Below, piece by piece: positions 3,196-50,287 of a stretch of 53,914 nucleotides of DNA (position 1 is its first letter; each line of letters opens with the position of its first letter). The stretch lies in the IMG/VR virus record IMGVR_UViG_3300036791_001299, positions 1 to 53,914 of that record; one strand, given 5' to 3'. A program made the translations under genes and the position numbers. This stretch comes from a virus (taxonomy: Duplodnaviria > Caudoviricetes). The notes under the pieces are model-generated. The model did no database searches, was not told the origin of the DNA, and worked only from the letters and a program-made list of their open reading frames with translations.

Positions 3196-3284
3196 GAGAT
3201 TCCTACTTGTGCCATTGGCACCCACACCGAACCTTGCCTTGCCACACCTAGCCCGACCGTGCCGAGCCCTACCGCGCCCATCTC

Positions 3285-4933: not shown

Positions 4934-5389
4934 TTAAAATTGCTCAGTAGGTTTCAATGCCTGCTCAGCGGCTTGGTAGCTGAGACTGGTAGCTGAGACC
5001 AGAGCCATGCGCATAGCGATGGTCATGGCCAGACATTGCTCCACGTTTAAATTCCACTGCCGCACCATAATCTCGACGCGGCCATCGCGCACGTAGAGAG
5101 TGGCGGGAATCCAGGTCATGCCTTCCATCGGCGGTTGCGAGCAGAAGAATTCGATGCGCGTCAATTTGCCGTTCTGCGTCTCCGTAGGCTCGATACGGCA
5201 GAGCACCCGCTTCGCGTCTTTCAACTCGGTCTCGTGCTGCCGGTCGAGGTCGAAGGCGTCGATTACCGAATGGCATTGCTCGCACACCGCGTAGTCCTGA
5301 GAGCTGGGACCCGTTTCAGAGTCGTAGTCGAGGCGTGTCAGCATGCGGAATTCGGACGGCTGGCCGCAGGACGGGCAATTGAGTGTCAT
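4934..5389 (-). CDS. Hypothetical zinc-ribbon protein; C-terminus encoded by a CRISPR repeat copy
   Basis: CPSCG...CEQC; 3' end overlaps the solitary repeat. Confidence 0.6.
   Translation of the reverse strand: MTLNCPSCGQPSEFRMLTRLDYDSETGPSSQDYAVCEQCHSVIDAFDLDRQHETELKDAKRVLCRIEPTETQNGKLTRIEFFCSQPPMEGMTWIPATLYVRDGRVEIMVRQWNLNVEQCLAMTIAMRMALVSATSLSYQAAEQALKPTEQF
4951..4999 (+). repeat. Solitary CRISPR repeat plus 13-nt tandem duplication of its 3' end
   Basis: GTTTCAATGCCTGCTCAGCGGCTTGGTAGCTGAGAC (4951-4986) then TGGTAGCTGAGAC; 4 mismatches to the array consensus. Confidence 0.9.
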
Positions 5390-5592
5390 TTGGACGCCTT
5401 CACCTTTCCGGAGCGTTGGGCCTGCAGCCACGCCATGGCATCCGCGCGAACAAGCCAGACGCGCCCGTGAATTCTTTTAACTGGCAGTTCGCCGTCCGCG
5501 ATCAAATGCCGGACCAGCCTTGGTCCAAGCCCGGCCATGCGCGCAAATACAGCAGTCGCTATAAAAAGAGGGTCGTTCTGTTTTTGAGGCAT
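5386..5592 (-). CDS. Excisionase-like/HTH_17 DNA-binding protein
   Basis: FARMAGLGPRLVRHLIADGELPVKRIHGRVWLVR. Confidence 0.7.
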   Translation of the reverse strand: MPQKQNDPLFIATAVFARMAGLGPRLVRHLIADGELPVKRIHGRVWLVRADAMAWLQAQRSGKVKASK

Positions 5593-24189: not shown

Positions 24190-24480
24190 TTACCGGGGCT
24201 TGGGCTTTTCCACCGCAGCAGGGTTATGATGCTCGCCGGTGTGGGTCTGGGACGCAGTATGCTGCTCACTGCGCGCCGCCTTATCAACTCCGGCGATAAA
24301 CTCCTCGCACACCGCGCGGATTTCAGGCGCGCGAAAGTCATTCCGCAGATAGTAGGAGACCGCTTCGCGGATAATCTGGTCCTTCTCCGACTGCGACTTT
24401 TCCGGCTTTTTCTCTTCGGGTTGGGTGTGCTGTACCGGTTCGTCCTTGGGCATTTTCTTTTTCCTCTTCGTCGTCGCCAT
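24190..24480 (-). CDS. Hypothetical charged protein
   Basis: TAATG coupling to the capsid gene stop. Confidence 0.5.
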   Translation of the reverse strand: MATTKRKKKMPKDEPVQHTQPEEKKPEKSQSEKDQIIREAVSYYLRNDFRAPEIRAVCEEFIAGVDKAARSEQHTASQTHTGEHHNPAAVEKPKPR

Positions 24481-25559
24481 TAAATGCAGTTGGTGAGAAA
24501 CCCGCCCATGTCGGCGCTGACCACTTTATGGACGTAAGCCGACTCAATTTCCACATGCGTCGAGCGATCCTGCTGCAGGTAGTAGCTCGAGATCCGTTCG
24601 CCCGCCGGAGTCGCGCCGAAGTACCCGTTCCAGGTGAAGGTATAGCCGCATGCGGCAGTCATGATGCCGGGCGCGGGAGGCGTGTAGCCGATCCAGACAT
24701 TGGGTCCGGCGACAAACTGGTTAGCTTCACCGGCGTTCACGCCGACGTTGTAGCCGGGCGGAACGTAAGTGGCACCACTGTCTGGACCGGCCAGCTCGGG
24801 GGCGCTATTGTAAATCGCGTCGGAGACAAACACTTTGTCCATCTCGAAAATCGCGGCCAGCGTATCGAGGATGACCTGCGCGGGACGCGGCGCGGTCTGG
24901 CCGTATTTCACGCGGTCGACGAATTCCGGATGGTCGAGCAACACGTCGAAAACAGGGCGTCCGATCACCATGCGGTTGGCGCGGTAGGTGCTCGTGAGCT
25001 GCACGATCTGTTTCAGCTTGCGCACGTCCTGGATGGGCGTCGAGGCGGCGTTTGACCAGAGCATGAAGTTGTAACTCGATGCGCTGGACGGAGGCGGTGC
25101 TGTCGGATACGCGGGGCTGGCCGCAGCCGCGCCGGTCCACAGATTGGTCCACACGCCCGGCTGGAAGAAGGTGGTCATCCAGGCCATCTCGCGGTTGATC
25201 AGCGATTGCATGGTCAACAGGCGCGTGGCTTCGAGGTCGAGATTGAAGATCGAGTCGGCGTTGCCGCGGGTCTGATCGTCAATGGGTTTGCCGAGGGCCC
25301 AGACATCGCACAGATACGAGGCATTCGTGTCGGTGCGGTAGCCGATGTTTTTTACCATCGTCCCGGGCGCGCGCTTCTGCATCTGGTTGCGGTTGAAATC
25401 GGCGCGCGAATAGGTGAGATACCGGTCGGAGATCTTGGGGACCGGCACGATGGGGAACACATCCCGCGCGATGAAGTTGGTCTGGTCCTGCGAAAACATG
25501 ACGCTCATGTCGGTGAGTAGCGCGTTTACGTGGACGTCGGATAGTGTCGGCTGAGCCAT
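24480..25559 (-). CDS. Major capsid protein
   Basis: 359 aa; LTDMSV...FIARDVFPIVPV N-terminus; follows the protease and decoration genes. Confidence 0.88.
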   Translation of the reverse strand: MAQPTLSDVHVNALLTDMSVMFSQDQTNFIARDVFPIVPVPKISDRYLTYSRADFNRNQMQKRAPGTMVKNIGYRTDTNASYLCDVWALGKPIDDQTRGNADSIFNLDLEATRLLTMQSLINREMAWMTTFFQPGVWTNLWTGAAAASPAYPTAPPPSSASSYNFMLWSNAASTPIQDVRKLKQIVQLTSTYRANRMVIGRPVFDVLLDHPEFVDRVKYGQTAPRPAQVILDTLAAIFEMDKVFVSDAIYNSAPELAGPDSGATYVPPGYNVGVNAGEANQFVAGPNVWIGYTPPAPGIMTAACGYTFTWNGYFGATPAGERISSYYLQQDRSTHVEIESAYVHKVVSADMGGFLTNCI

Positions 25560-25990: not shown

Positions 25991-26629
25991 TTACATCGCC
26001 CTGGTGCGGACTACATCTTCAATCGCGGTGCTCAGGCCGAGCTGCATCATGTAGCGCCGCTGATGAGTGAGCACGTATTCGGTCAACATCGCGCCGCGGC
26101 CACTGGGACAGGCGGCGATCACCCGGTCGCGCTCATCCATGTAGGACTCGTAAATCTGCGGGTTATCGAGCAGCACCCGCTCGAGCGCCTGATAGCGGGT
26201 AAGCGAGTTGTTTGATCCGGCGCGCAGTGCATGTGCCTGCCGGATGGCCTGCTCGACGGAAACCTGTCCCTGCGCGGTGCTCTCACCGCTCAGGAAGGAT
26301 CCGACCGGACCGGGCTGCTCCGAGGCTTTCGCCCGGCGCTCGTTCAACTTCGTCATGACTTCGTCTTCGGTGAGACCGGCGGCTATGTATTCGCCGACCA
26401 ATTCCCGGCAACCAGCGAGCTGGCAAAGCTCATCGATACGCTTTGCAACGTCATTCGGTCTCGACACCTGCGTCACTCCTTTGGCTTTTGACTTCGACTT
26501 GGACTTGGCTTCTTCTTCATCCTCGTCATCGTCGTCATCGTCCTCACCCGGCTTTTTCGCGTCATCGTCGTCCAGGTCCTCATCGTCCTGTTTCTTCTTC
26601 GACTCTTCGGTTTCAGACTTCTTTGCCAT
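25991..26629 (-). CDS. Nested in-frame scaffolding protein (Nu3-like)
   Basis: Internal ATG (MAKKSET) preceded by AAAGGAG; acidic/charged sequence. Confidence 0.65.
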   Translation of the reverse strand: MAKKSETEESKKKQDDEDLDDDDAKKPGEDDDDDDEDEEEAKSKSKSKAKGVTQVSRPNDVAKRIDELCQLAGCRELVGEYIAAGLTEDEVMTKLNERRAKASEQPGPVGSFLSGESTAQGQVSVEQAIRQAHALRAGSNNSLTRYQALERVLLDNPQIYESYMDERDRVIAACPSGRGAMLTEYVLTHQRRYMMQLGLSTAIEDVVRTRAM

Positions 26630-27652
26630 GTCTTCAGCTCCTTTTTCGTCCGCAGTGTCCGCTAACGTCCCAGCATCTGGATGCTGTAATGCCGTAACGT
26701 CATGATGCTGTGCATTGAGTGCATTATTATCCATAACTCCCGGCAGTGCAAGAGTCTTGGATGTCAAGGTATTAATGCGCACAGTGAGTGCGGCCAGTGC
26801 ATCGTCGAAAGTGCCCACCTCATCCGCCAGCTTGTTGAGCGCGTTGGTGCCGAAGAATACCTCCGCTTCGGTGTTGCGGACGGCCTGTTTCGAGATGCCG
26901 CGGTTGCGCGCCACGCAGCCCACAAAGATCTCGTACTCGCGGTCGACTTCGGCCTGAATGTCGGCTTTGGCCGCCTTGCTCAACGGCTGATGCGGGTTGC
27001 CGTCAGTCTTTTTCTCACCCGCGAACACGTAGGTGTAGTTGACCCCGGTCTTTTCGTCGAGCACCGACTGATCCATGTGCAACGCGAAGACGCCGATGGA
27101 CCCGACGCCGCCGGTGCCGGTGACAAACACCCGGTCGGCGGCGCTGGCGAGCGCATAAGCCGCGCTGGCCGCCAGATCGTTGGCAATCGCCCAGACCGGC
27201 TTGCCGCTTTCAGTGCGCATGGTATAGAGCGCATCAGTCAATTCGAAACAGCCGTGGGTTGTACCGCCCGGCGAGTCGACGTCGAAGAGCACGGCTTTCA
27301 CGGCTGGATCTTCGATGGCTTGCCGCGCGGTCTTCGCCAGTCCCTGGTAAGTGGTCAGTCCGCTGGCGGAAGAGAGAAACGAAAACCGCTTCATCAGCGT
27401 GCCCCGGATGGGAATCACCGCGATACCCTCCGGCGTCAGCCGGTACGGTTTCTGATCGGGTTTCTGCGCATCGCCCGCCTGCGCGACAACCAGCCCTCCC
27501 GCGCGGGGAAACAATTCCTCGATGACGGCCTCATTGAGCATGAGGCGGGGTCCCAGAACGCGCAGAATAACGCCCAGCTTCTCGGGCAGAATGGCATGCG
27601 GCTGGTCGAAGATCATCTGCGCCAGATGCGGCCAGTGTAAGTGTTGCTCCAT
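25991..27652 (-). CDS. S49 family prohead protease (lambda gpC-like) with C-terminal scaffold
   Basis: DVDSPGG, AASAAYALASAA, GSIGV, KTDGNPH motifs. Confidence 0.92.
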   Translation of the reverse strand: MEQHLHWPHLAQMIFDQPHAILPEKLGVILRVLGPRLMLNEAVIEELFPRAGGLVVAQAGDAQKPDQKPYRLTPEGIAVIPIRGTLMKRFSFLSSASGLTTYQGLAKTARQAIEDPAVKAVLFDVDSPGGTTHGCFELTDALYTMRTESGKPVWAIANDLAASAAYALASAADRVFVTGTGGVGSIGVFALHMDQSVLDEKTGVNYTYVFAGEKKTDGNPHQPLSKAAKADIQAEVDREYEIFVGCVARNRGISKQAVRNTEAEVFFGTNALNKLADEVGTFDDALAALTVRINTLTSKTLALPGVMDNNALNAQHHDVTALQHPDAGTLADTADEKGAEDMAKKSETEESKKKQDDEDLDDDDAKKPGEDDDDDDEDEEEAKSKSKSKAKGVTQVSRPNDVAKRIDELCQLAGCRELVGEYIAAGLTEDEVMTKLNERRAKASEQPGPVGSFLSGESTAQGQVSVEQAIRQAHALRAGSNNSLTRYQALERVLLDNPQIYESYMDERDRVIAACPSGRGAMLTEYVLTHQRRYMMQLGLSTAIEDVVRTRAM

Positions 27653-27670: not shown

Positions 27671-29344
27671 TTACGGCTTGGGCGGCTCGCTGCTATCGTC
27701 CGTTTTCGCGGCGTCCTGCGACTCCGGTTCACCCTCTTCCTCGGCTTGCGGCGACGCCTCTTTTCCGACCAGAATCTTGCGCGGATCGATGTCGTAAACC
27801 AGCTCGAGCGCGTCGGTCCGGGCATTGTCCGCGACCTGCTGCTGGTCGATAGTCTCCGCATCCTCGCCGAGTTCCGCGCATACGGTCTGGCGCGACGTGA
27901 ACCCGCAACGGACCATGGTCTGCTTGGCCTCGATGTCCTTCGCCGGGTCGATCCACTGCCACGCCGACGGCATCCACGCAACCTCCAGGTATGGCTCCGG
28001 CTCATCCGCGTAACCCGGGAGGCTGAGGCGGCCACTCAGCACCGCTTCATCCATCCACCAGCGCAACAGCGGCTGGCAGAGTTGAGTGATCAGCACGTTG
28101 TAGATAAACTGCTCGGCCTTGCGGTGGGCGTCCTGCACGCCCGCGCGAATGGAGGAGAGGTTAACGCCACGCAGATCGCCGGTCACCTGCTCGTAGGTCG
28201 CGCCGATGGCCGCCGCAAACTGATGCAGCATGATCGACATGAAACTGCTGAGATCGTTGTTTTGCGGCAGCGACGGGAACTTGATTTCCTCGCCCGGGTA
28301 CAAGTAATTAAACGAGCCGGGCTCCACCTCGGTGAACCCGACAGGCTGGGGCGGAACATAGCCACCAACGGGAGCCGCCGTGCCGCCCGTCCAGGCCGTG
28401 GGTAAAACGTCGGTCTCCGGCACGGTCTTTGAGATGAAGCCCGCAAACATCGACTGCACCTCTTTGGCGACTACCGTGGCATCGGTATACTTGCCCAGCT
28501 CATGCAACAGCACCAGCACGCTCGCCAGATGCGGCTGTCCACGCAGCAAACCGGCGCGAAACGGCTTGTAGGCGTGGATCATCCGGTCGGACGGCACCCG
28601 CACGAATTGCAAGGCGGACGATGTGAAGAACATAGTCTCGCCGGGGTGCTCGGCATACATGTGAAAGGCCGCCAGCCGTCCCTGCGCGTCGAATTCCTTG
28701 CCGGTGCGCACCATGGAGCCCTGCGCGGTGGGCGCAAGACCCGCCGTCGCCGTCAGATTCAGCCAGATGGGACATTGCTCGGCCTCGATCAGCTGAAATT
28801 GCACCGGCACCCGCAGCGGCTGCTTCGCATTGGGATTGGCGGACCAGCCGCGGGGCCGGATGTGCCGCCGCACGAAGACCTCGCCGCCTTCGAAGATCTC
28901 GCGCGCCGCGAGCGCCTGCAGGCCGAAGAAATCGCTGAGACCGTGATAGTCGATGGTCTTGGTCAGCATCGACAGGCGAAACTCGCGCTCGATCTCGAGT
29001 TTGAGCTTTTCGTCCTTGAGCGACCACTTCGGCTTGATGCCGTTGCCGACCACCTGACTCTCGAAGTTATCTACCGCCGACGCGGCCAGCGGGTTGTTGC
29101 GGACCTCATCGTGACACCGCGCGAGCATCAGGTCCCGCGTACCCCATAGCGATGTTGTAGGACCCAGTCGCGACGGCTGCCAGCCGCCTAAACGGCGACC
29201 GGTGCCGGTAGCTTCGTAGGGCGCGCCGGAACCGCTATAGCCGGAGTATTCGGAGGGATATTGCGCGCGCCGGTCGAGCACCGCCGTGCCGGGTGTCGAC
29301 CCTGAGAGGCCGTGGAGCCGGGCCAGACTGCGTTCCGATGCCAT
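27671..29344 (-). CDS. Portal protein, lambda family
   Basis: RNNPLA...VGNGI, QLIEAEQ, RGQPHLA, YEQVTGDL..VN.SS.RAG, WIDPAKD. Confidence 0.93.
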   Translation of the reverse strand: MASERSLARLHGLSGSTPGTAVLDRRAQYPSEYSGYSGSGAPYEATGTGRRLGGWQPSRLGPTTSLWGTRDLMLARCHDEVRNNPLAASAVDNFESQVVGNGIKPKWSLKDEKLKLEIEREFRLSMLTKTIDYHGLSDFFGLQALAAREIFEGGEVFVRRHIRPRGWSANPNAKQPLRVPVQFQLIEAEQCPIWLNLTATAGLAPTAQGSMVRTGKEFDAQGRLAAFHMYAEHPGETMFFTSSALQFVRVPSDRMIHAYKPFRAGLLRGQPHLASVLVLLHELGKYTDATVVAKEVQSMFAGFISKTVPETDVLPTAWTGGTAAPVGGYVPPQPVGFTEVEPGSFNYLYPGEEIKFPSLPQNNDLSSFMSIMLHQFAAAIGATYEQVTGDLRGVNLSSIRAGVQDAHRKAEQFIYNVLITQLCQPLLRWWMDEAVLSGRLSLPGYADEPEPYLEVAWMPSAWQWIDPAKDIEAKQTMVRCGFTSRQTVCAELGEDAETIDQQQVADNARTDALELVYDIDPRKILVGKEASPQAEEEGEPESQDAAKTDDSSEPPKP

Positions 29345-36148: not shown

Positions 36149-38206
36149 TTACCGGCGGCGGAATCCGCCCCGCTGCGCGCCCAGACCCGGGTAGGCTGGC
36201 TGCGCAGTCACCGGTGCCGTCCAGGCGGCTTGAGTGGGCTGTGGCACCGGTGCCGGACGTGGCGGCGCTGCGCCTTCGATGGCAATAGCCGCCTCGAAAT
36301 GACGCCAGTGGTCTTCCCCAAACCGGTCCGCGCCCACAATCGAATAGGCCGCCCGGTTGTACACCGCGAGATCGATGGGCTCATTGCGCGGCGCGCGCTT
36401 CTCGTAGACGACGTCGCCGTTGGGCTTGACGATCTTCACCTCGGAGCATAAGCCTTCGAAGTACGTCATGTCATACATCGGCCAGTGATAACAACCGGTC
36501 ACCGGCGTATCGTCCACCGTAGGCACCGCGTGCCGCATCAAATCAAACAATTCAGCCTTGCAGCAGTTCACCCCGACACCCACAATGCGCGTCCCCTGCC
36601 GCTTGCGCGCCGCATCTTCCTTCGAAATGCTGGCAATGACCCGCAGCTGGTCCGGCGTACCCTTGATAGGCACCACCGTGCGCGCCGCGATCAACTTAAT
36701 ACCTTGCGGTCCGTAATGCAGCTGATGCCCCCGCCGCGTAAACTCGTATACCGGCTTCGGGTTTTTGCCGGTGTCGATGGTCATGCAAAGGATCGGCAGA
36801 CTCTTACCCGAGTTGTGCGCCCACTCGCGTCCCAATAACTCATACAGCTGGTCCCACAATTCCCGCGCGCTCACCGGCAACTCCTGGCCATTCTCGCTGA
36901 ACGCTTGCAGCACCCAGTAGCCCATCGACCAGTTTTCGCGGTTTCTACCCCAGGCCTTCACTTCAACCTCGAGACGCGCCGGATGCTCCTGGACGTCAAC
37001 CGCCGCCGTCAGGAACAGACCCCGCTGCGGCACCACCGCAGTATCCCCGAACGGATAAGCCTCCCGCCGCGCAAACAACAGATCCTTCTCCGGCGCTTCG
37101 CCTTCTTCCACCCATTCCTCGGCGAGCACCGTATTGATAAACGTTTTGAGACTCTGCCGGTCGTCTTTGGCATTCAGAAACTGCTGCGAAATGGACGCCG
37201 CCGACTTCCAGCTCGGTGGCACATACAAGTGGTTCAGCCAGAATCCAGCCGTGCGATTGCCCGCCTGCGGACGATCCGCGCGCCACTCGACATAGTGATC
37301 CACCGCATCCCAGCGCTCCCGCTCCGTCCACGGCTTATCGCAACTGATGCAGTAATAGCGCGCCGTCGCCGCCTGCAGCTCCCGCGCCACGGCGGTAGAC
37401 CACTTGACGTGATACCCGTCCCGGTCGCGGAATCGCAACACCTGCATGGTGCCGCAATGCGGACACGGCACGTAGGGGCGCCGCTGGTCGGACAACGCAA
37501 ATGCCCTGCCGATCCGGCTGCGCCCGGCCACCGTCGGACTGCACGCCAGGATACGCTTGCGGCGCGTCCCGAAGGTCATGGCGCGTTCCCACGCAAGGTC
37601 GATAGGATCACCTTCTCCCTGACGCTCCTGGCTGCCGCCGACATCCTGGTCGTACTTGTCGATCTCATCGCACACCAGATACCGGATGGTGTGCTGCGCC
37701 AGATCCACCGGCGTGCGCGCACTGATGATCAGCAGGTTGCCGCCCGGGAAGGTCTTGCTCTGGATGGTATTCGAGCCATCGTGGATGCCGTCCAGCACCT
37801 TATTGCGCAGGATCTGGCAATCCCGCACCATGGGCATCAACCGGCGCTTCGAGAAATCGCGCGCGGCGTCTTTTTTGGGCTCGACCAATAAGATGGGCCC
37901 CGGCTCCTCGGCGATCCAATACGCAATCGCCAGCATGATCGCGAGACTCTTGATCACCTGGGTGGACGACATGATCACCACGGTCTCGATGGTGTCGTCC
38001 GTTATGGCGTCGAGAATGCCCCGCTGCCAGCCGTACAACCGCAAGGGACCGGTCGACGAGCTGTACTCCGGCGACAGCACCACGTTGGCTTCCGACCATT
38101 GCGAAAGCGGCACCCGGGGACGCACCCGGAAGATCTCAGAGTGCAAGCTCTGAAATACCGGCGGCGGCCAGTCCCAGCCTGGAACTAAGAAAGATGGCGT
38201 TTCCAT
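36149..38206 (-). CDS. terL: Terminase large subunit (lambda gpA family)
   Basis: variant Walker A SSTQVIKS, LVCDEIDKY, CSPT, CPHCG, AAVDVQ, IDTG, RNEPIDL. Confidence 0.95.
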   Translation of the reverse strand: METPSFLVPGWDWPPPVFQSLHSEIFRVRPRVPLSQWSEANVVLSPEYSSSTGPLRLYGWQRGILDAITDDTIETVVIMSSTQVIKSLAIMLAIAYWIAEEPGPILLVEPKKDAARDFSKRRLMPMVRDCQILRNKVLDGIHDGSNTIQSKTFPGGNLLIISARTPVDLAQHTIRYLVCDEIDKYDQDVGGSQERQGEGDPIDLAWERAMTFGTRRKRILACSPTVAGRSRIGRAFALSDQRRPYVPCPHCGTMQVLRFRDRDGYHVKWSTAVARELQAATARYYCISCDKPWTERERWDAVDHYVEWRADRPQAGNRTAGFWLNHLYVPPSWKSAASISQQFLNAKDDRQSLKTFINTVLAEEWVEEGEAPEKDLLFARREAYPFGDTAVVPQRGLFLTAAVDVQEHPARLEVEVKAWGRNRENWSMGYWVLQAFSENGQELPVSARELWDQLYELLGREWAHNSGKSLPILCMTIDTGKNPKPVYEFTRRGHQLHYGPQGIKLIAARTVVPIKGTPDQLRVIASISKEDAARKRQGTRIVGVGVNCCKAELFDLMRHAVPTVDDTPVTGCYHWPMYDMTYFEGLCSEVKIVKPNGDVVYEKRAPRNEPIDLAVYNRAAYSIVGADRFGEDHWRHFEAAIAIEGAAPPRPAPVPQPTQAAWTAPVTAQPAYPGLGAQRGGFRRR

Positions 38207-38351
38207 TTACCACGCGCCTTATTGGCTCTGCCAAACTTCGGATCCAATGCCCGCCGCATGTCAATCGCCTCGCGCAGCCGACGCCAATACTCACACCACG
38301 CCCGAAACGCTGAGGCCGACATCTCTGGCATCTGTAAACCCATATTTTAAA

Positions 38352-38618
38352 GTCTCACCTATCAAGCCGGTGAACAGGCATTGCGTAGCTTTTCTCCATA
38401 ATAATTTCTCCGTAGGTCTCACCAACCAAGCCGGTGAACAGGCATTGCGACTTTAGTGCATGATAGTCTCAGTTACCAGGCCACCAAGCAGGCATTGCGT
38501 CTCCCTCATCCTCGTCCCGGCTACCAAAGCCGCCGAGCAGGCATTGCTTGGTTCCGGCCCCATCTCGACTAGAGCCTTCTGCGTTTCAGCTACCAAGCCG
38601 CTGAACAGGCATTGTGGA
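38352..38618 (-). CRISPR. Distal array segment: 5 variant repeats
   Basis: Repeats at 38352, 38416, 38466, 38514, 38583; spacers about 28, 14, 12, 32 nt. Confidence 0.8.
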
Positions 38619-39263
38619 CTCCTCGGCAATCGCGCGCTGCGCCAATACTAACAGGTCCACGCTGTCAGGCAGCGCCGCGGCCCGTACTGCCACATATGCT
38701 GCCTCCGCCACCCTCCTCATTACCGTAATCTCTATTTGCTGGCACGCCGCGCAGGCCGCACACGTGGCGCACCACGCTGCTTTGGCCGCTCCCCTTGCCT
38801 CCTTCGAGCGATGCTGAACTGCCCGGACTGATGCCGCCATCCCGGCTGCGACTGCCTTTTCGTGAGAACGATCCGTACCGTTTAGCCACCCATACGCCCA
38901 GCCCACAAAGGACGGATCGCGGTCCACCGCCATCGCGCACATAACCGCAAACCGCACCCTCGCGCTTGCCGCAACCTCCGGCATCTCGATGCGCCGGATG
39001 GTGGTCAGCGACCTACACCCACACTTGAGTTGTCCGTCACGCAGTCCTATTTCGCCCTCAGCCTCCCAGAGCAGTATGTTTCGGGGATCAACGTATATTG
39101 CCGGGATCAATAAAGCCGCCAGGAGCGGATGCTCGTGAGCATGTATCCACCCGTCCGTAAAAAGCTCCTTGCCGGTGCCGGTCGCGGCGTGGGTGACATT
39201 CTCCCCCCACTCGATCCCGTCTCCCGACTGGTCATTGGCGTCAGCCACTTTATAGAGGGTCAT
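38586..39263 (-). CDS. Phage hypothetical protein embedded in the CRISPR array
   Basis: 225 aa, AAGG RBS, flanked by repeats on both sides; stop codon lies inside a repeat. Confidence 0.75.
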   Translation of the reverse strand: MTLYKVADANDQSGDGIEWGENVTHAATGTGKELFTDGWIHAHEHPLLAALLIPAIYVDPRNILLWEAEGEIGLRDGQLKCGCRSLTTIRRIEMPEVAASARVRFAVMCAMAVDRDPSFVGWAYGWLNGTDRSHEKAVAAGMAASVRAVQHRSKEARGAAKAAWCATCAACAACQQIEITVMRRVAEAAYVAVRAAALPDSVDLLVLAQRAIAEESTMPVQRLGS

Positions 39264-39325
39264 TTGGTTTTTACCTTACCTTTCCGGGTAGACTAATGCG
39301 CACGGGCTTACTGTGCTCGGCGCTG

Positions 39326-39362
39326 GTCGGCAATGCCTGTTCAGTGGCTTGGTTACTGAGGC
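39326..39362 (+). repeat. Inverted CRISPR repeat copy
   Basis: GTCGGCAATGCCTGTTCAGTGGCTTGGTTACTGAGGC, opposite orientation to the array. Confidence 0.85.
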
Positions 39363-39380
39363 CGTCAACACACATCGCGC

Positions 39381-41379
39381 GTCCCGGCTACCAAGCCGCC
39401 GGGCAGGCACCTCGGATTACTTCACGGATGTCTCAGCTACTAGGCCGCCGAGCAGGCGTTGCGACAGACCATAAGATCTTCGCGTCACACCAACTAAGCC
39501 GGTGAACAGGCATTGCAACGCGGAATGCGACGTGCGTTGGCGTCCACCCGAAGAGTCGCGTCTCAGCTACCAAGCCGCTGAGCAGGCACCGCGACTATCG
39601 CTAAAGGCTAATGTCCCAGCTACCAAGCCGCTGAACAGGCGTTGCAACGCAGCTTGCTGACCCAGATCAAGACCTCCAGATCCATCCCGTCTCAGTAACT
39701 AAGCCACCGAGCAGGCGTTGCGACCCCATGTCTCTATCAACGGACGTCACGACAAACAAGTCTCAGCTACCAAGCCGCTGAACAGGCGTTGCGACGCACG
39801 GCGGCGGCGATCCGCACCAGGAAGTCCACGTCTCAGCTACCAAGCCACCGAGCAGGCGTTGCGACACCACGAAAGGATCGGGAGCAATGACGTCTCAGTA
39901 ACCAAGCCACTGAGCAGGCGTTGCGACGGAGGGTGGCGTGATCGCTCATGAAACCAGTATGCGCTGTCTCAGCTACCAAGCCACTGAGCAGGCGTTGCGA
40001 CGCTGCATCCTTCGGTTGTTCCCATCGCACCTGCCACGTCTCAGCTACCAAGCCACTGAGCAGGCGTTGCGACGATTTAAACCCTGGTATATGCTCATGC
40101 ATAATAGTCGGGTCTCAGCTACCAAGCCACTGAGCAGGCGTTGCGACTGCCAGCCATTTTTCGAGCGCCGCCGTTGGGACGCGTCTCAGCTACCAAGCCA
40201 CTGAGCAGGCGTTGCGACGATTTAAACCCTGGTATATGCTCATGCATAATAGTCGGGTCTCAGCTACCAAGCCACTGAGCAGGCGTTGCGACGCTGTTAA
40301 AGTAGCGCGGTGCCGTTTGTGCGGTTAGTTGTCTCAGTAACCAAGCCACTGAGCAGGCGTTGCGACCACGTCGACAGATCTCTTTCACGGCGATGACGTC
40401 CTGTCTCAGCTACCAAGCCACTGAGCAGGCGTTGCGACGGGGTCGAGTATGACGCCGATATTCAGCCTCGAGCCGTTGTCTCAGCTACCAAGCCACTGAG
40501 CAGGCGTTGCGACGTTCGAAAACTGGCCGGAGATCGCCACCACTGACCCTGTCTCAGCTACCAAGCCACTGAGCAGGCGTTGCGACAGGAGCCGCCCTTG
40601 CAGGCGGATGATCTGGCGCTTGTCTCAGCTACCAAGCCACTGAGCAGGCGTTGCGACACTGCGATCCGGTGCGACCGGCGGGTATCAGCAGTAGTCTCAG
40701 CTACCAAGCCACTGAGCAGGCGTTGCGACGTTGTATTTCGGACAATACTATCCGTTGGAATTTGTTGTCTCAGCTACCAAGCCACTGAGCAGGCGTTGCG
40801 ACATCCGTGGTCCGCGTACTGCGGGTGCCGACATCGTCGTCTCAGCTACCAAGCCACTGAGCAGGCGTTGCGACGTCCAGGTCAAAATCATCAAGCACGG
40901 ACGGTTTAGCGTCTCAGCTACCAAGCCACTGAGCAGGCGTTGCGACCTAAACCCCGGAAAAAGTTCGAAGCACCCTACCCTGTCTCAGCTACCAAGCCAC
41001 TGAGCAGGCGTTGCGACGCGGTGACATCGCCGAGCGCCGCGCCCCAGATGTAGAGTCTCAGCTACCAAGCCACTGAGCAGGCGTTGCGACACGGAAACTG
41101 GTCGGGCTGGAGGAAATCGAGCAGTAGGGGTCTCAGCTACCAAGCCACTGAGCAGGCGTTGCGACCGCGGTCCGGCCTCCGGTCTCCTCTTTCTCGGAGC
41201 GTCTCAGCTACCAAGCCACTGAGCAGGCGTTGCGACAACCCGGACCTGCTCGCTCGATACCGGAACCGTCTTGTCTCAGCTACCAAGCCACTGAGCAGGC
41301 GTTGCGACCATTCGGCAGGGGTAGATACCCCCCAACTACCTACGTCTCAGCTACCAAGCCACTGAGCAGGCGTTGCGAC
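39381..41379 (-). CRISPR. CRISPR array, 29 repeats of 36 nt (21 near-identical, 8 variant)
   Basis: Minus-strand repeat GTCGCAACGCCTGCTCAGTGGCTTGGTAGCTGAGAC; mostly 34-40 nt spacers; divergence increases away from the cas gene. Confidence 0.98.
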
Positions 41380-41382
41380 AGC

Positions 41383-43191
41383 CTAGTCGCCAGCTGCCAT
41401 GTTTTCATCAGGTTCCAGACCGGTTTGCGAGCGGTCTGGTTTTGCGCCCTCTTCCACCTCCGTAACTCGTTGTTTCTTATCAGATGCCACCTCTGGCATC
41501 GCCCCACCGCTCGCACGCATCTGCCCCCACGCCTTCAACAGATTCTTCGCCGCATTCAAATCCTGGTCCCACAACATCCCGCACCCACCGCACCGGTGCA
41601 TGATACTCGCCGCTTGATCCCACTCATGCGCATACCCGCACGCATGGCACTCCCGCGTCGTATACGGCGCAGGCAGCTCAACCACCGCCACCCCTTCCCG
41701 GCTGCACGCACTCTTAATCGCCAGCCGCAACGTCCCCGTACTGGCCATAAACCGGTACGTCCCCGACCCCGTGACAACCGCCGCCGACTCCGGCTGAGGA
41801 TGCTCCACCACCGAGCGCAAATCAAATTCCTCCACCACCACCACGTCATAATCCCGCGCCAGCCCTGCCGCGAAATCCCGATACCGCGCCAGCCTCCGGC
41901 CCGTCATCTGATGCTGCAGATTCCGCCACCAGTCCGTCAAATGCAGAAACTGCTTGCGCCACCGGACCGCCTCCGCAAACATTCCCTCATCACCCGGCAG
42001 CCGGTTATCCGCCCACCAGCGGATCAACGCCGCCACACGTTCCCCGGACCGCCACTGATACAGATACGCCGACCGCGTCCGCCACTCCTCCGCCAACTCC
42101 CGCTGGCCCAGCCACTCCACTAGCTCCGGGTGAAACTGCTCCCGGCTCTTATCGCAGATCGACCGCAGATCCGCGACCTTCTGGAACTGCGCGATATCGG
42201 AGCCCTCAATCCGCAATTCACCATGGCCGCCCAGCGAGTCAGCCCAGTATCCCACCCGCACCGCGCCCTCCGGCTTCAATCGCCAGCCCAGATCGAGCGC
42301 CAATACCCGGCTGCCGGTCTTCTCACTAGGCCGCGGCAAGCTGATGCTCACATTCAGCTGCCAGTGCGTCTTCCCCGCCAGGATGCGGCGGCTGGCGCTT
42401 ACACTCTTGATACGCGCCTCCGGAGGCAGATCCCGATGGTAAACAATCGGAATCTCAACCCACACCGGCGACCGATCCGCATTGCTGCCGATCCGCACGC
42501 GCGCATACCGCCACTTCCGGCCCGGCGTCGGTGGATCCACCTGGAACAGCGTGTTGGTGCCGCCTACGCAGTCGCTGACGCACGCGCCACCCTGCACCTG
42601 CGCGGTAACCGTCCCTTCGCCGCGGAAGCCGTGATAACGCAGCTCGCTATCCCCCTTGCCCTTGCGCGCCAGCTGACGCGCCGTCTCCGCCCGCTGAATG
42701 ATGTCGTTATAGGAGCCCCAATAGAGCCCCAGACCCGCCGCCGCTTGCCGCGCCTTAATCGTGCGCCGGTACGCCCGCTCCGTATTGGCATCCAGCTGCT
42801 GCCGCTTGGCCTCATGCCGCGATTCCTTGGTCGCCTTCCGCTCCGCGATCAACGGCTTTCGCTCCGCCTCCGCCGCCGCAATGCGCTCCGGCAGATCACC
42901 AAGATCCGCGCCCTTGCGTTTACGCGCGGACTGGCGAGCCTTCTTGATCAACTCCCGGCACAAACTGATCTCCGCCGACAGCTCATCGATCCGCGTTTGC
43001 TGGTCATCCCGCATGATCCGCCGGTACGCCGTATCGCGCGTACGCTCGATGGTGACCAGGACATTCCATAGCCGGTTGCCCAGCCGCATCTGTCCTCGAG
43101 CCGAATCTTCATTGATCACCGGTGCGATCCGCGCCGGTACCGTGCCATAGGAGTACACCCGGCTGGCTGTATCGTCTGTTTTACGCTGCAT
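41383..43191 (-). CDS. cas12m: Type V CRISPR effector, Cas12m-like (V-M/V-U1, TnpB-derived), ~602 aa
   Basis: LYWGSYN, LRYHGFRGEGTVTAQVQ, PIVYHRDLP, RuvC-I ALDLGWR, RuvC-II VVVEE, TTRECHACG...CGGCG zinc finger, RuvC-III DQDLNAAKNL; abuts the array. Confidence 0.85.
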   Translation of the reverse strand: MQRKTDDTASRVYSYGTVPARIAPVINEDSARGQMRLGNRLWNVLVTIERTRDTAYRRIMRDDQQTRIDELSAEISLCRELIKKARQSARKRKGADLGDLPERIAAAEAERKPLIAERKATKESRHEAKRQQLDANTERAYRRTIKARQAAAGLGLYWGSYNDIIQRAETARQLARKGKGDSELRYHGFRGEGTVTAQVQGGACVSDCVGGTNTLFQVDPPTPGRKWRYARVRIGSNADRSPVWVEIPIVYHRDLPPEARIKSVSASRRILAGKTHWQLNVSISLPRPSEKTGSRVLALDLGWRLKPEGAVRVGYWADSLGGHGELRIEGSDIAQFQKVADLRSICDKSREQFHPELVEWLGQRELAEEWRTRSAYLYQWRSGERVAALIRWWADNRLPGDEGMFAEAVRWRKQFLHLTDWWRNLQHQMTGRRLARYRDFAAGLARDYDVVVVEEFDLRSVVEHPQPESAAVVTGSGTYRFMASTGTLRLAIKSACSREGVAVVELPAPYTTRECHACGYAHEWDQAASIMHRCGGCGMLWDQDLNAAKNLLKAWGQMRASGGAMPEVASDKKQRVTEVEEGAKPDRSQTGLEPDENMAAGD

Positions 43192-43198
43192 GCTTAAA

Positions 43199-43228
43199 AT
43201 TGTATTTAAAGGTGGGCCAAATTGCGAA
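43199..43228 (-). promoter_or_regulatory. Candidate leaderless promoter for cas12m (TTCGCA-N18-TACAAT-N7-ATG)
   Basis: No SD before ATG 43191; -10 box 7 nt upstream. Confidence 0.5.
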
Positions 43229-43250
43229 AACAACGGCGGGTGGTTTTGTT

Positions 43251-43709
43251 TTATCGTCGCGGCTCGAAAACGATAACCTGGACGGACTCCATCGAGCCAA
43301 GCGCCTGCTCTATTTCCGGACGCACATCACCCCAGCTCAGCCCGCCATTGCCGCATCCCAGCGCAGGTATTGCTAGGGACCGAATATTTTCCTCTTCAAT
43401 CACACGGCGAAGATCCCGCAGTCCGTCGACAATCCATTTCAGCTGGGAGGGATGCCGCCAGTGCTCCTTCGTGGGAAAGTTGATCACCCACTGCGGACCG
43501 TGAAGGTCGTTGGTCTTCGTAACAAACATGCGCCCGATTCTGACTTCATTGCGGTTGCACGCTAATACGTAGGCGCGATAATTCTTCGGATAAGCATATC
43601 TGAATTTGAACGCAATCCCCGCGCCCATCGTGCCGACCGTGTTCACGGTATTGACCAGCGCTTCCACTGGCTCTCTCAAGAGATCCCCGTCTACCCGAAA
43701 TGTGATCAT
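43251..43709 (-). CDS. DarG-like macrodomain (ADP-ribosyl hydrolase)
   Basis: GDLL...ALVNTVNTVGTMGAGIA..F, INFPTKEHWR, SLAIPALGCGNGGLSW. Confidence 0.88.
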   Translation of the reverse strand: MITFRVDGDLLREPVEALVNTVNTVGTMGAGIAFKFRYAYPKNYRAYVLACNRNEVRIGRMFVTKTNDLHGPQWVINFPTKEHWRHPSQLKWIVDGLRDLRRVIEEENIRSLAIPALGCGNGGLSWGDVRPEIEQALGSMESVQVIVFEPRR

Positions 43710-44248
43710 GCCACCTTCTGTGCGTCGAGATCGGCGTTGAGTATCCGGTTAATGTTTTCCCACTTCGCCAGTACCCGCAGCATGGCGGCCTCCAGGACAG
43801 CGCGGATCTTCAGCGGCTCGGTCTCGGACGCCAGCGAGTCAGCCAGCTCGGAAGGCAGCCTCAGCAATTCATCGCGCCCATCGACCAGGAACTTTGCCGC
43901 CCACCGCGACACATAGCCGACCGGCAACAATTCCCCGCGCCGCACCATATTCTCAATCTCTTGCTTCTCGGCGAGCGCCCTCGCCCGGCGCAGCTTCGCG
44001 GACTCCAGCGCATCGGTACGCTCCGCCGCCGCGATCACCATCTCGTATTCCGAGCGCGGAGTCTCTTTCTCCGCCACCGCCTTCTCCGGAATAGGTGGCA
44101 CCGGCGTTGTACCATGCCGCTGCGCCGCAAACGCACGTATCTGCTCGACCGTCTTGCCCGCCCGCATCATATTCGATACCGTCTTGGGCGGCAGATTCAC
44201 ATCGCGCGCGAGCGAATTAACGCCTACATAGGTGACCCGTTGCATCAT
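43706..44248 (-). CDS. terS: Terminase small subunit (Nu1-like)
   Basis: N-terminal HTH; AKLRRARALAEKQEIENMVRRGELLP coiled coil typical of Nu1. Confidence 0.75.
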   Translation of the reverse strand: MMQRVTYVGVNSLARDVNLPPKTVSNMMRAGKTVEQIRAFAAQRHGTTPVPPIPEKAVAEKETPRSEYEMVIAAAERTDALESAKLRRARALAEKQEIENMVRRGELLPVGYVSRWAAKFLVDGRDELLRLPSELADSLASETEPLKIRAVLEAAMLRVLAKWENINRILNADLDAQKVA

Positions 44249-44251
44249 AGG

Positions 44252-44593
44252 TCAATCGTATTCGATCCAATTGATCAACGTCGGCGTCCCCGCTTGCACC
44301 CGGCACTGATAGTAATGACCGGCCAGCACCACGCAGACCAACTGTTGGATCGACGATTGCGGTTGATTACCCGCGATTCGCGCCACTTCTGTTCCCGGCG
44401 GGTTAGCCCCATCACTGAAGAAACTCAGCGTCGAGGCCTTACCCCCTAGATCCCAGCAAGAAAAAACCAGTATCGTTTTGCCGGTGGTGTTTTGGTAAAC
44501 GACATCTGCAGTGCGCTCCGCGGTCACAATGGTCTGCCGCTGTAACACGGTTGGAATACCGTGACGATAGAAAGTACCAGTGCTGTTGGGCAT
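44252..44593 (-). CDS. Hypothetical protein
   Basis: 113-aa ORF upstream of terS. Confidence 0.55.
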   Translation of the reverse strand: MPNSTGTFYRHGIPTVLQRQTIVTAERTADVVYQNTTGKTILVFSCWDLGGKASTLSFFSDGANPPGTEVARIAGNQPQSSIQQLVCVVLAGHYYQCRVQAGTPTLINWIEYD

Positions 44594-44626
44594 ATCTCAT
44601 TAAACTACCCCCAAATGTAGCTAACA

Positions 44627-44665
44627 AAGTTATCTATCAAAGTTATCTATTTAAGTTATGTATTT
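44627..44665. repeat. 3 x 13-bp AT-rich direct repeats
   Basis: AAGTTATCTATCA / AAGTTATCTATTT / AAGTTATGTATTT. Confidence 0.75.
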
Positions 44666-44817
44666 AAGCCAACTTGTGTGTTTTCATATACATAGAGCAT
44701 TATGAAGGCGTTTTACATCCGCCATTCATTCGCGCAGGCCGCACTGCGCCCACCCGCGCGCGGCGACCACCCCATGACCTAGGACCCATTTGCTGCCGTA
44801 GCGAGCCCGTAGCGGCC

Positions 44818-44945
44818 TTTGTTTTCAATGACTTACAGTGGATCTTTGCTGTCAACGGCTTACAGCTCGGCTCTTTGTTTTCAATAGTTTGCAGACTATG
44901 TTTGTTTTCAATTGTTTGCGAGCAAGTCCTTTGTTTTCAGCAGAG
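44818..44945 (+). promoter_or_regulatory. Five phased IHF-like motifs (TTTGTTTTCAAnnnnTT)
   Basis: Copies at 44818, 44845, 44874, 44901, 44930 (27/29-bp spacing). Confidence 0.55.
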
Positions 44946-46664: not shown

Positions 46665-46669
46665 AGTTT

Positions 46670-46825
46670 GCGGTCGGCAGCCGTGCTGGCGGTCGGCAGC
46701 CGTGCTGGCGGTCGGCAGCCGTGCTGTGCGGTCGGCAGCCGTGCTGTGCGGTCGGCAGCCGTGCTGTGCGGTCGGCAGCCGTGCTGTGCGGTCGGCAGCC
46801 GTGCTGTGCGGTCGGCAGCCGTGCT
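46670..46825. repeat. Tandem repeat, 8 x 19-20 bp
   Basis: GCGGTCGGCAGCCGTGCTG(T). Confidence 0.95.
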
Positions 46826-48846: not shown

Positions 48847-49063
48847 GTGGTGCCCGTGGTGGTGTCGGCGTGCCCGCGGTGGCATCGGCGTGTCCGCGGT
48901 GAGCATCGGCGTGCCCGCGGTGGCATCGGCGTGCCCGTGGTGGTGTCGGCGTGCCCGCGGTGGTGTCGGCGTGCCCGCGGTGGCATCGGCGTGTCCGCGG
49001 TGAGCATCGGCGTGCCCGCGGTGGCATCGGCGTGCCCGTGGTGGTGTCGGCGTGCCCGCGGTG
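48847..49063. repeat. Imperfect tandem repeat, ~10 x 20-21 bp
   Basis: (G)GTGG(CA/TG)TCGGCGTG(C/T)CCG(C/T)G units. Confidence 0.9.
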
Positions 49064-49086
49064 GAGCACGTTAAGAGTCCGAGGTT

Positions 49087-49318: not shown

Positions 49319-49354
49319 GTCTTAATGCCCGTTCAGTGGCTTGGTAGCTGAGAC
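49319..49354 (+). repeat. Solitary CRISPR repeat
   Basis: GTCTTAATGCCCGTTCAGTGGCTTGGTAGCTGAGAC; last 22 nt identical to the array consensus. Confidence 0.9.
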
Positions 49355-50287
49355 CCCTATCTTAATTCGGATCTCGCGTGGAGCCGGTGTATTGCCGCGT
49401 GGACCGCGCACAGTTTGCGGCGACCAGAATACGCCATGCAGTTTGCCAAACAAGCCACGGCCTTCGCGATAGTCGCGGAAGTGGCCGCGGCAGATATGGA
49501 GCGACTTCTGGATGCTGCCGCCGGGATCATGCGACCGGCCTTCGCGGCGAAGAATCTGTTTCAGCGGCTCGATCACCAGCGTCTTCGGCACGACCGGCTT
49601 AACACCGTGGTTGCGCTCGTACTTTTTGGCGAGTTTGGGCGGCACCGGACCGTCGACCACCGCCACGTTTTTGCAATGCAGAAATGAGATGGCGAGCAAT
49701 GCCGGATGCAAGTAAGTGATGAAATTGTGCATCTCGTTTTTATAGTCGTCCGCGCAGTAAATCACCATTGCGGGTTGCTGCAGCAGGTGTCCATCAGCAT
49801 CGATAAACAGCACAATTGAGCCGATGGGTCCGGTTGCCGTGACACTGCGGAAACCGTAATCGTGAAATTGCTCGCAGTGCAGAATCCACCGCGTGCCGTC
49901 CGGAATCGGCATGGCTTTACGCACATGGTCCGGGTTGGCGACGATGCAAAGCGCGCCTTGACGACCGTTAGGCATGAACGCCGTCACGTCGGTGTCGCCT
50001 TTCTCTTTCGAGTGGATACGCCGGGGCATTTTACACTCCAGCCAAAACATCGGATAGGGTGGTGCTAAATTCGGGAAATCATCCCGCAGATCCCAATACT
50101 CCTGGTCGCTCGAATAGTAATAATCAGCAACGTTGTCGATTAGTAGCACCGGCAGCTGCGGGTCGTGTAGGCATGTCCACACACGAGCGCCCAGCTCATT
50201 CCAGCGCTCTTGAAGCTGCGGCGCGATAAACCACGGCATGGCGATTTTGGCTCCAGGTGCGCGGATGTCGTCGATTAAACGCGGCAT
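49322..50287 (-). CDS. Hypothetical phage protein; C-terminus encoded by a CRISPR repeat copy
   Basis: 321 aa, HICRGHF...LFG...FW...VRG motif; ends VSATKPLNGH. Confidence 0.75.
   Translation of the reverse strand: MPRLIDDIRAPGAKIAMPWFIAPQLQERWNELGARVWTCLHDPQLPVLLIDNVADYYYSSDQEYWDLRDDFPNLAPPYPMFWLECKMPRRIHSKEKGDTDVTAFMPNGRQGALCIVANPDHVRKAMPIPDGTRWILHCEQFHDYGFRSVTATGPIGSIVLFIDADGHLLQQPAMVIYCADDYKNEMHNFITYLHPALLAISFLHCKNVAVVDGPVPPKLAKKYERNHGVKPVVPKTLVIEPLKQILRREGRSHDPGGSIQKSLHICRGHFRDYREGRGLFGKLHGVFWSPQTVRGPRGNTPAPREIRIKIGVSATKPLNGH

Follow-up and report, generated by a model that had tools for sequence, protein, structure and literature searches.

A predicted Cas12m cassette with a 34-repeat array separates the terminase genes of a lambda-like tailed phage

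Introduction

Phage-borne effectors of clustered regularly interspaced short palindromic repeat (CRISPR) systems that are accompanied by an array, and that lack adaptation genes, are exemplified by Cas-phi of huge phages and by the type I-F system of ICP1. These systems are used for counter-defence or for competition between elements; their effectors cut DNA, and their targets are known or inferred. Here we describe a locus of similar composition in a 53,914-nt stretch of tailed-phage DNA (IMG/VR record IMGVR_UViG_3300036791_001299, positions 1 to 53,914; hereafter the window), in which a macrodomain gene, a gene for a predicted type V-M effector (cas12m), and an array of 34 repeats with a further gene embedded in it lie between the genes for the small (terS) and large (terL) terminase subunits. 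Unlike Cas-phi and the ICP1 type I-F system, the effector in the window would, by analogy with its relatives, be of the DNA-binding type.

Type V-M systems are described in a 2024 review as enriched on plasmids, with some prophages encoding them too. MmCas12m2, GoCas12m, MsCas12m, and PmCas12m resemble the window system in having an effector of ∼600 aa and 36-nt repeats with a pseudoknot and a stem (PMC10442227, PMC11013384, PMC11656645, bioRxiv 10.64898/2026.03.26.714355), and these plasmid and prophage systems process their own CRISPR RNA precursors (pre-crRNA), bind DNA without cutting it, and often have no adaptation module. The window system, known from its sequence, differs from them in residing in the packaging operon of a tailed phage, and in its lack of a leader, its heterogeneous repeats, and its very short distal spacers.

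A phage counterpart is MvCas12m of the myxophage MV-1, presented in a September 2026 preprint as the first phage Cas12m (bioRxiv 10.64898/2026.09.14.751636). It is likewise a phage type V-M effector, of ∼610 aa and with a D-E-D catalytic triad, and is encoded next to an array without cas1, cas2, or cas4; no trans-activating CRISPR RNA (tracrRNA) was reported for it, and no protospacers were found. An earlier note on the window also states that minimal type V systems lacking cas1 and cas2 are known from phages. MV-1 has eight spacers and one consensus repeat, whereas the window has 34 repeats (11 of them variants), an embedded gene, and inverted and solitary repeats, and its locus, unlike that of MV-1, is situated between terS and terL and beside a DarG-like macrodomain gene. 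In the accessible parts of the Cas12m-phage literature we found no mention of a terminase-flanked locus, an array-embedded gene, or a variant-repeat array.

The macrodomain has a counterpart of its own in the DarG2-like phage macrodomain AdfM, which clears DNA of DarT2 marks and has N22 and K80 in its active site (PMC13309987). Both are stand-alone macrodomains with conserved N/K motifs, and the DarT-binding C-terminal domain is absent from the window protein. AdfM was described from nucleus-forming jumbo phages, whereas the window protein, so far a sequence only, comes from a lambda-like phage of ∼54 to 70 kb in which its gene is translationally coupled to terS.

Results

Organization of the cassette

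The region is co-oriented on the minus strand, in the order orf113, terS, macrodomain gene, cas12m, 29 repeats, an inverted repeat copy, a 225-aa gene, five repeats, and terL. Its components are as follows.

44252-44593, minus strand: orf113
43706-44248, minus strand: terS, small terminase subunit, 180 aa (phrog_57, 2e-11; homologues in sister phages)
43251-43709, minus strand: DarG2/AdfM-like macrodomain, 152 aa (Pfam Macro, 2.6e-22); its start overlaps the terS stop
43192-43250, minus strand: 59-nt spacer between the macrodomain gene and cas12m, holding a promoter-like site
41383-43191, minus strand: cas12m, predicted type V-M effector, 602 aa (PDB and PADLOC matches)
39381-41379, minus strand: main block of 29 repeats, the first beginning 3 nt after the cas12m stop
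39327-39362, plus strand: inverted complete repeat copy (46.1 bits and E 2e-9 with the covariance model, which was trained without it)
38586-39263, minus strand: intact gene for a 225-aa DUF7666/Imm5-like protein, its last codons and stop inside repeat 30
38352-38618, minus strand: distal block of variant repeats 30-34 (covariance model, 34-55 bits)
38207-38351, minus strand: 145-nt interval from the last repeat to the terL ATG, sharing no sequence with sister phages
36149-38206, minus strand: terL, lambda gpA-type large terminase subunit, 685 aa (Pfam and PHROG matches)

The terL product matches Pfam GpA_ATPase (2.5e-62), Pfam GpA_nuclease (2.2e-63), and phrog_15 (4e-168), and in 11 sister loci a terS homologue of 46-53% identity immediately precedes terL; the two are a predicted lambda-type terminase pair, with a Nu1-like terS and a gpA-type terL. 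The distance from the terS stop to the terL start is 5,499 nt, close to the ∼5.5 kb given in the earlier note, and the ATGA that it described as joining the terS stop to the macrodomain start is present at 43709-43706. The gene identities and the shared orientation that it proposed also agree with the Pfam, PHROG, PDB, NCBIfam, and PADLOC matches and with the location of all the genes on the minus strand.

Continuity of the locus was examined in the single DNA run found to hold the stretch, where a Logan contig of 16,424 nt with a uniform depth of 18.7 runs from terL through the distal repeats and the embedded gene to the edge of the main array, and on through cas12m and the macrodomain gene to terS. 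This run may be the source sample, in which case the contig is not independent evidence. The contig collapses identical repeats, such that 39891 joins 40331 and 40402 joins 41344, and parts of the array are without contig cover in that run; the only uncertain quantity in the assembly is the number of identical internal repeat units.

Sister phages and the insertion site

IMG/VR contains 14 loci whose terL matches that of the window at a best-segment identity of 68-78%; 11 of them, with terL identities of 71-77%, also have a full terS match. All 11 have terS-terL gaps of 0 to 818 bp: terS and terL overlap in two, and in the other nine they are separated by 140 to 818 bp carrying unrelated small open reading frames (ORFs) of at least five sets. 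None of the 14 loci has a match to cas12m, the macrodomain gene, the 225-aa gene, or the repeat, and neither Cas12m nor Macro was found in five whole sister records, including a complete 70,797-bp record with direct terminal repeats; the window itself, taken as a positive control, gives 4e-269 with the Cas12m profile. The homology with sister phages breaks off precisely at the terS stop and starts again at the terL N-terminus. The C-terminus of terS (...QKVA*) is intact, as in sister phages, and keeps the ...VA* end of the family; no conserved element was found upstream of terL across 12 aligned loci.

The cassette is thus an insertion relative to sister phages, as the earlier note had supposed. 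Its premise that terS and terL are normally adjacent needs revising: strict adjacency holds in two of the 11 sister loci, and the other nine carry cargo of their own. From this comparison the terS-terL site is a pre-existing cargo (moron) hotspot in a co-oriented packaging operon, rather than a rule that this phage has violated, and the window cargo is by far the largest found there. Because terS and terL overlap in two sister loci, the comparison also suggests that they are an ancestrally cotranscribed pair. In one sister locus (L014) the terL match is split by ∼1.07 kb (1538-1789 and 2864-4540), which may reflect an intron, an intein, or a homing-endonuclease insertion.

The Cas12m effector

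We assigned the cas12m start to the ATG at 43191 from the conserved N-terminal motif RVYxYG; the alternatives are a TTG at 43233, from which the frame is open, and a database call that gives a 568-aa product. The protein matches PDB entry 23vw, deposited as 'DNA-binding protein Cas12m', at 1e-88, entries 23vu, 8hhl, and 8hio at ∼1e-23, and 8pm4 at 1e-16, together with PADLOC Cas12u1 (4e-107, positions 10-556) and Pfam Cas12f1-like_TNB (4e-12). In an alignment with 24 homologues of 47-58% identity, the RuvC triad D300, E454, and D544 is invariant, and the zinc-finger residues C515, C518, C534, and C537 are kept in at least 90% of the 25 sequences. Among solved structures the nearest relative is 23vw, whose residues at the aligned sites are also D, E, and D, and it is this protein that its depositors name a DNA-binding protein. 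By its homology, its length of ∼600 aa, its RuvC and zinc-finger TNB domains, and its D-E-D triad, the product is predicted to be a type V-M effector. Cas12m variants with D-E-D, H-D-D, and N-D-D triads have been reported to bind double-stranded DNA without cleavage, and MsCas12m cuts pre-crRNA inside the repeat independently of RuvC (PMC11013384).

The repeat array

The array comprises 34 repeats of 36 nt on the minus strand between 38352 and 41379. A regular-expression search finds 33 copies, one more with a 1-nt insertion (38514-38550) brings the total to 34, and a covariance model detects every one of them on the minus strand (34-58 bits); 23 copies have three or fewer mismatches to the consensus, compared with none in 100 shuffles. 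The count of 34 in the earlier note therefore stands, but the array is in two blocks, split by the 225-aa gene. Only 3 nt separate the cas12m stop from the first repeat, and the array is accordingly leaderless. Repeats 1-23 match the consensus fully or closely, with spacers of 26-39 nt, and repeats 24-29 are variants with spacers of 13-40 nt; with the distal block, where the spacers are 32, 13, 14, and 28 nt, the variants number 11 (spacers 13-40 nt).

The repeats share a conserved fold in which columns 14-19 pair with columns 29-34 and the GCC at columns 9-11 pairs with the GGC at columns 20-22, both of them invariant. This was evaluated with 27 distinct repeats (14 array variants, two solitary copies from elsewhere in the window, and 11 from L081, the locus of the closest viral relative), leaving out two copies with 1-nt insertions. 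Across this set 97.9% of the cells are paired, and five of the six stem pairs change on both sides; the covariation score is reached by none of 500 shuffles, and sliding the partner by 1-3 columns in either direction reduces pairing to 16-58%. The resulting stem (-3 to -8 with -18 to -23), which ends 2 nt before the spacer, and three-pair pseudoknot correspond in position to the crRNA scaffolds of Cas12m2 and PmCas12m (PMC10442227; bioRxiv 10.64898/2026.03.26.714355). The position of the hairpin and its covariation indicate that the transcribed strand is the cas12m strand, and the 'degenerate' repeats retain an intact structure. At 68.8%, the array is also similar to an unannotated plasmid array of Allomeiothermus silvanus, the source species of MsCas12m (PMC11013384).

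Among the spacers, 27 are 26-40 nt long (mean GC 0.57) and five are 13-18 nt, and one 762-nt interval contains the embedded gene. A 17-bp heteroduplex is the optimal length reported for Cas12m2, so the 17- and 18-nt spacers could work, and those of 13-14 nt probably could not. A 111-nt repeat-spacer-repeat unit occurs twice with 100% identity (40037-40147 and 40182-40292), which makes spacers 16 and 18 identical. This duplicated spacer is AT-rich (GC 0.39) and has a plus-strand promoter-like motif, TTTAAA-18-CATAAT, which would fit a guide derived from a promoter.

The earlier note had proposed a role in competition with other phages and mobile elements or in silencing host genes; the spacer searches gave no protospacer among GenBank phages, PLSDB plasmids, 179 loci, sister phages, or the phage itself. 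With blastn, the whole array gave one 26-nt match (E 0.9) in 50,697 GenBank phages and only repeat-like or chance matches in 72,556 PLSDB plasmids. With blastn-short, the best match of the 32 spacers to the 179 loci was 19/19 in GC-rich sequence, which we judged to be chance. Seeds of 17 nt matched the phage itself at 14/17 at best (shuffled seeds, 15/17), and 20-nt seeds matched the 14 sister loci at 17/20 at best (shuffled seeds, 16/20). One 26-mer of the duplicated spacer, the only spacer sequence included in a scan of IMG/VR, had no matches there.

An inverted complete copy of the repeat is located 64 nt upstream of the embedded gene, at a distance of 18 nt from repeat 29. In the minus-strand transcript this copy could form a long imperfect hairpin with repeat 28 (39300-39480 folds at -74.3 kcal/mol, z -2.1, and is not followed by a U-tract), and with its capacity to pair with repeats it may have a tracrRNA-like role; no inverted copy was seen in 81 related loci when up to 10 substitutions were allowed. 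Two solitary repeats are present elsewhere in the window, at 4951-4986 and 49319-49354, both on the plus strand, with covariance-model scores of 57.0 and 47.8 bits and four and five mismatches, and both structurally intact; they were used in training the covariance model and were also found independently by the regular-expression search against shuffles. The first overlaps the minus-strand ORF 4934-5431 at its 3' end, and the second does so with the minus-strand ORF 49322-50287, whose stop is inside the repeat. The copy at 4951-4986 is followed by a 13-nt duplicate of its own 3' end (Tandem Repeats Finder, 4974-4999).

The macrodomain and the embedded gene

The macrodomain matches NCBIfam DarG at 9e-73 over positions 4-149 of 338, and with 245.4 bits it narrowly misses the full-length cut-off of 250, since the protein consists of the N-terminal half only. 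It also matches PADLOC DarG (3e-70, positions 1-146 of 329), the Thermus aquaticus DarG2 structures 5m31 and 5m3e (4e-52), and 5m3i (2.5e-47). Its NTVNTVG and FPTKEHW motifs, which carry the active-site Asn and Lys, are identical to those of 5m31, and FPTK(E/K)HW is conserved; placing N22 and K80 of the T. aquaticus DarG2 active site on the PDB chain uses an inferred numbering offset. By analogy with AdfM, the protein is most simply viewed as another orphan anti-DarT2 factor.

The 225-aa gene within the array is a real gene. Its product has a conserved N-terminal domain of ∼133 aa, an alanine-rich middle, and a C-terminal DLxxIA motif, and has 122 homologues, which share the N-terminal ∼59% at 40-59% identity. 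A Pfam DUF7666 match (1.2e-3) is below the cut-off, and its neighbouring atlas clusters are 90-100% viral and labelled DUF7666 or Imm5_like, which we treat as a lead only. It looks like a third accessory gene that has recombined into the array.

Cas12m in other viral and metagenomic loci

A scan of IMG/VR with the single Cas12m protein found nothing, and an alignment-based scan identified relatives at 70 IMG/VR loci, on 29 genome contigs, and in 334 metagenome stretches, of which 80 were kept. One GenBank phage record was found to have a full-length relative (32% identity over 98% of the query): KX853510.1, 'Virus Rctr197k' (197 kb), at 112366-114174, where it is annotated only as similar to a transposase. 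Of 81 related loci, 34 have similar repeats, in every case on the strand of cas12m, and an exact-word detector places an array no more than 350 nt downstream of cas12m in 31 of 49 viral loci, a count that includes redundant contigs. In three metagenome relatives (L186:105-176, L188:518, and L242:683), repeat copies are positioned just upstream of cas12m on the same strand, and these may flank the gene or autoregulate it.

Terminase genes are not a regular neighbour of cas12m. We searched 97 ORFs of at least 340 aa taken from 36 distinct viral loci, between ∼5 kb upstream and 6.5 kb downstream of cas12m (one ORF of 1,725 aa was dropped), and found three Terminase_6C, two GpA_nuclease, and one GpA_ATPase match, and three matches to portal families. 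A terL is thus within ∼6 kb in roughly five of the 36 loci, if the three Terminase_6C and two GpA_nuclease matches are from different loci; this is about what a 13-kb interval in genomes of 36-200 kb predicts, and terL proximity is not a family trait. In L081 (52% identity), an array of 11-12 mutually different repeats spaced 47-98 nt start to start (11743-12428) stops 19 nt short of the 3' end of a terL that is convergent and of the Terminase_6 type (12446-14062). Closer relatives on short contigs have one methyltransferase and one PHROG family of unknown function nearby, and no terminase. Neither the macrodomain gene nor the 225-aa gene was found beside any other Cas12m locus examined.

Transcription signals

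Promoters and terminators were sought with a crude consensus scan, from which phage late promoters may differ. In the region as a whole, it found five promoter-like sites (2.9 expected) and five terminator-like sites (7.7 expected from shuffles). The sole minus-strand sigma-70-like site in the cassette, TTCGCA-18-TACAAT (43228-43199), is weak, with 9/12 matches. The cas12m ATG comes 7 nt after the end of its -10 element, and we see no Shine-Dalgarno sequence, a placement that would make the cas12m mRNA leaderless if the site is used. Two minus-strand terminator-like sites, both weak, are located at 39128-39116 and 39777-39764; one is inside the embedded gene, and the other is a repeat hairpin with a T-rich spacer. 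The scan found neither a terminator-like nor a promoter-like site in 38207-38351, which accords with the earlier note, where no clear terminator had been seen between the array and terL.

Read-through from terS to terL is permitted by the architecture of the locus and suggested by the ancestral terS-terL overlap. Long untranslated RNA is considered a substrate for Rho unless antiterminated, a concept cited in PMC7862264, and the 3-kb untranslated array is likely to be one; this would suit a model with a cassette promoter active in the prophage and with terL reached by late, antiterminated transcripts alone. A boxA-like motif has four matches where 2.0 are expected, and none is near the cassette.

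Other features of the record

The record is linear, with a CheckV completeness of ∼76%, and belongs to a tailed phage whose terL has at most 37% identity to those of named phages. Nearly all the structural genes are on the minus strand, as is the entire terS-terL region, and the early region, which is lambdoid in style, encodes RecT, Gp157, and an MT-A70 methylase. The head genes include the following.

27671-29344: portal
25991-27652: head protease
24480-25559: major head protein

Searches for cas1, cas2, and a tyrosine integrase found none in the record, and control genomes were positive for all three; since the record is only ∼76% complete, these absences, of which those of cas1 and cas2 were implied in the earlier note, hold for the record. 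There were no Rfam matches and no tRNA genes. A small candidate gene, orf52 (38185-38343), has no homologue in sister loci and was treated as unproven.

An intergenic region at 44594-44837 separates the packaging operon from a divergent GP88-like gene; within it are a 13-nt unit repeated in tandem about three times (44621-44668) and a 27-nt tandem (44817-44885). These repeats just upstream of the operon could be operator sites or cosB-like sites for terS binding. Other tandem repeats are a 20-mer in 7.9 copies (46669-46825), a 20-mer in 10.6 copies (48850-49064), and a 54-mer in 2.3 copies (17033-17155) within a 1,344-aa ORF. The 165-aa minus-strand ORF at 4934-5431, upstream of recT, has a weak GpA_ATPase-like stretch (E 8e-4, below the cut-off) and a hint of a zinc ribbon, and its C-terminus is encoded by the solitary repeat.

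Discussion

We think it probable that this stretch is an accessory conflict island that landed in the hypervariable terS-terL slot of a lambda-like soil phage with a gpA-type terminase, in the same orientation as the packaging operon. Its first module, the orphan DarG2-type, AdfM-like macrodomain, most likely strips DarT2-made ADP-ribose from phage DNA. In the second, Cas12m most likely processes the transcript of the leaderless 34-repeat array itself, and the resulting crRNAs of ∼50-60 nt would guide DNA binding that depends on a protospacer-adjacent motif and proceeds without cutting; such binding would block transcription or replication of competing mobile elements or host genes. Without adaptation genes, the array would change through recombination and duplication rather than through acquisition. 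The third module is the phage-typical DUF7666/Imm5-like gene that appears to have recombined into the array. Late transcripts probably cross the array into terL, because the ancestral terS-terL pair was overlapping or closely linked, and would be cut at the repeats. We read this cutting as a tolerated consequence of the insertion site, and not as a regulatory device.

Several observations weigh against this explanation. No target was found for any spacer, so that a role in competition or silencing is proposed by analogy with other systems, and the intact D-E-D triad leaves nuclease activity possible as judged from the sequence. For plain defence or competition, the 11 variants that keep the hairpin, the 13-18-nt spacers, the inverted copy, and the plus-strand solitary repeats, three in number, are superfluous. 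No DarT was found in the record, in a search whose control genomes were silent and which thus had no positive control. The ∼76% completeness counts here too, as absences hold for the record and not for the whole phage.

The earlier note had raised the idea that transcription through the array couples crRNA maturation to packaging-gene expression. In its strong form, the array is an obligatory part of a terS-terL late transcript, and Cas12m cleavage times or doses terL and the embedded gene relative to terS. The junctions are tight and co-oriented throughout (ATGA, 59 nt, 3 nt, a stop inside a repeat, 145 nt), there is no terminator-like or sigma-70-like site in 38207-38351 and no conserved element before terL in the 12 aligned loci, and the two sister loci with overlapping terS and terL point to ancestral cotranscription. 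Moreover, five intact variant repeats separate the embedded gene from terL, Cas12m processes pre-crRNA in its repeats (PMC11013384), and the L081 array also abuts a terL. However, that terL is of the Terminase_6 type and convergent, and the same logic is inapplicable there; sister phages package without the cassette, and terL adjacency in roughly 5/36 viral Cas12m loci is near what a 13-kb interval would give by chance. With a crude promoter and terminator scan, and with a 3-kb untranslated array that is a likely Rho substrate and has no boxA-like site nearby, we consider this form of coupling unlikely. It is also doubtful, in our estimation, that Cas12m and its repeat serve the phage by processing and regulating the RNA of its own operons, a role that might extend to Cas12m phages in general. 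In such a system, variant repeats with a preserved structure and sub-functional spacers would cut the late transcript into terS-macrodomain-cas12m, embedded-gene, and terL units, and the inverted and solitary repeats found at the ends of genes would either produce fixed guides or define where transcripts end; if this were true, packaging-gene dosage would depend on a CRISPR effector.

A possible account, although not the one we expect, is that the cassette is a lysogeny moron whose own promoter (43228-43199) drives cas12m and the array in the prophage, its position having no regulatory meaning; transcription would die in the array or at the hairpin of repeat 28 and the inverted copy, and terL would be reached only by antiterminated late transcription. 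The placement of the promoter-like site 7 nt before a cas12m ATG with no visible Shine-Dalgarno sequence, the long hairpin itself, the other accessory cargo at the same site in sister phages, and the lambdoid-style early region with RecT, Gp157, and MT-A70 are all consistent with this. Nonetheless, the promoter match is weak (9/12, among five sites where 2.9 are expected), the hairpin has a z of only -2.1 and no U-tract, and there is no integrase in the ∼76%-complete record. We give very little credence to the stretch being an assembly chimera, or a host or plasmid CRISPR locus wrongly joined to phage DNA. Identical repeats are hard to assemble, and the Logan contig does collapse the array, but the same 16,424-nt contig links terL through terS at a depth of 18.7, the ATGA is shared by the terS stop and the macrodomain start, and terS keeps its family ...VA* end; we therefore reject the chimeric assembly that the earlier note named as a possible refutation.

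Returning to the accessory island that we favour, its parts are of known kinds: a phage V-M system without adaptation genes, an AdfM-like macrodomain, and a moron hotspot. What is new is that the system sits inside a packaging operon, that its array starts without a leader, that its variant repeats preserve their structure and have short spacers, and that a gene and an inverted repeat copy lie within the array. The locus is a clean and well-bounded case of a tailed phage with a predicted binding-type CRISPR system, and the complete sister genome lacking the cassette provides a natural pair with and without it. The terS-terL junction emerges as a cargo hotspot of this phage group, one at which an anti-DarT2-type macrodomain, Cas12m, and an Imm5-like gene travel together here. 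Type V-M systems are far commoner in viral contigs than is stated in the accessible literature, with 70 IMG/VR loci and 334 metagenome stretches, and from this clade the pool of compact DNA-binding effectors gains D-E-D Cas12m variants that are ∼600 aa long and have 36-nt handles. If the array is truly part of the terL transcript, the phage would be a test case for how untranslated, self-processed arrays coexist with essential downstream genes.

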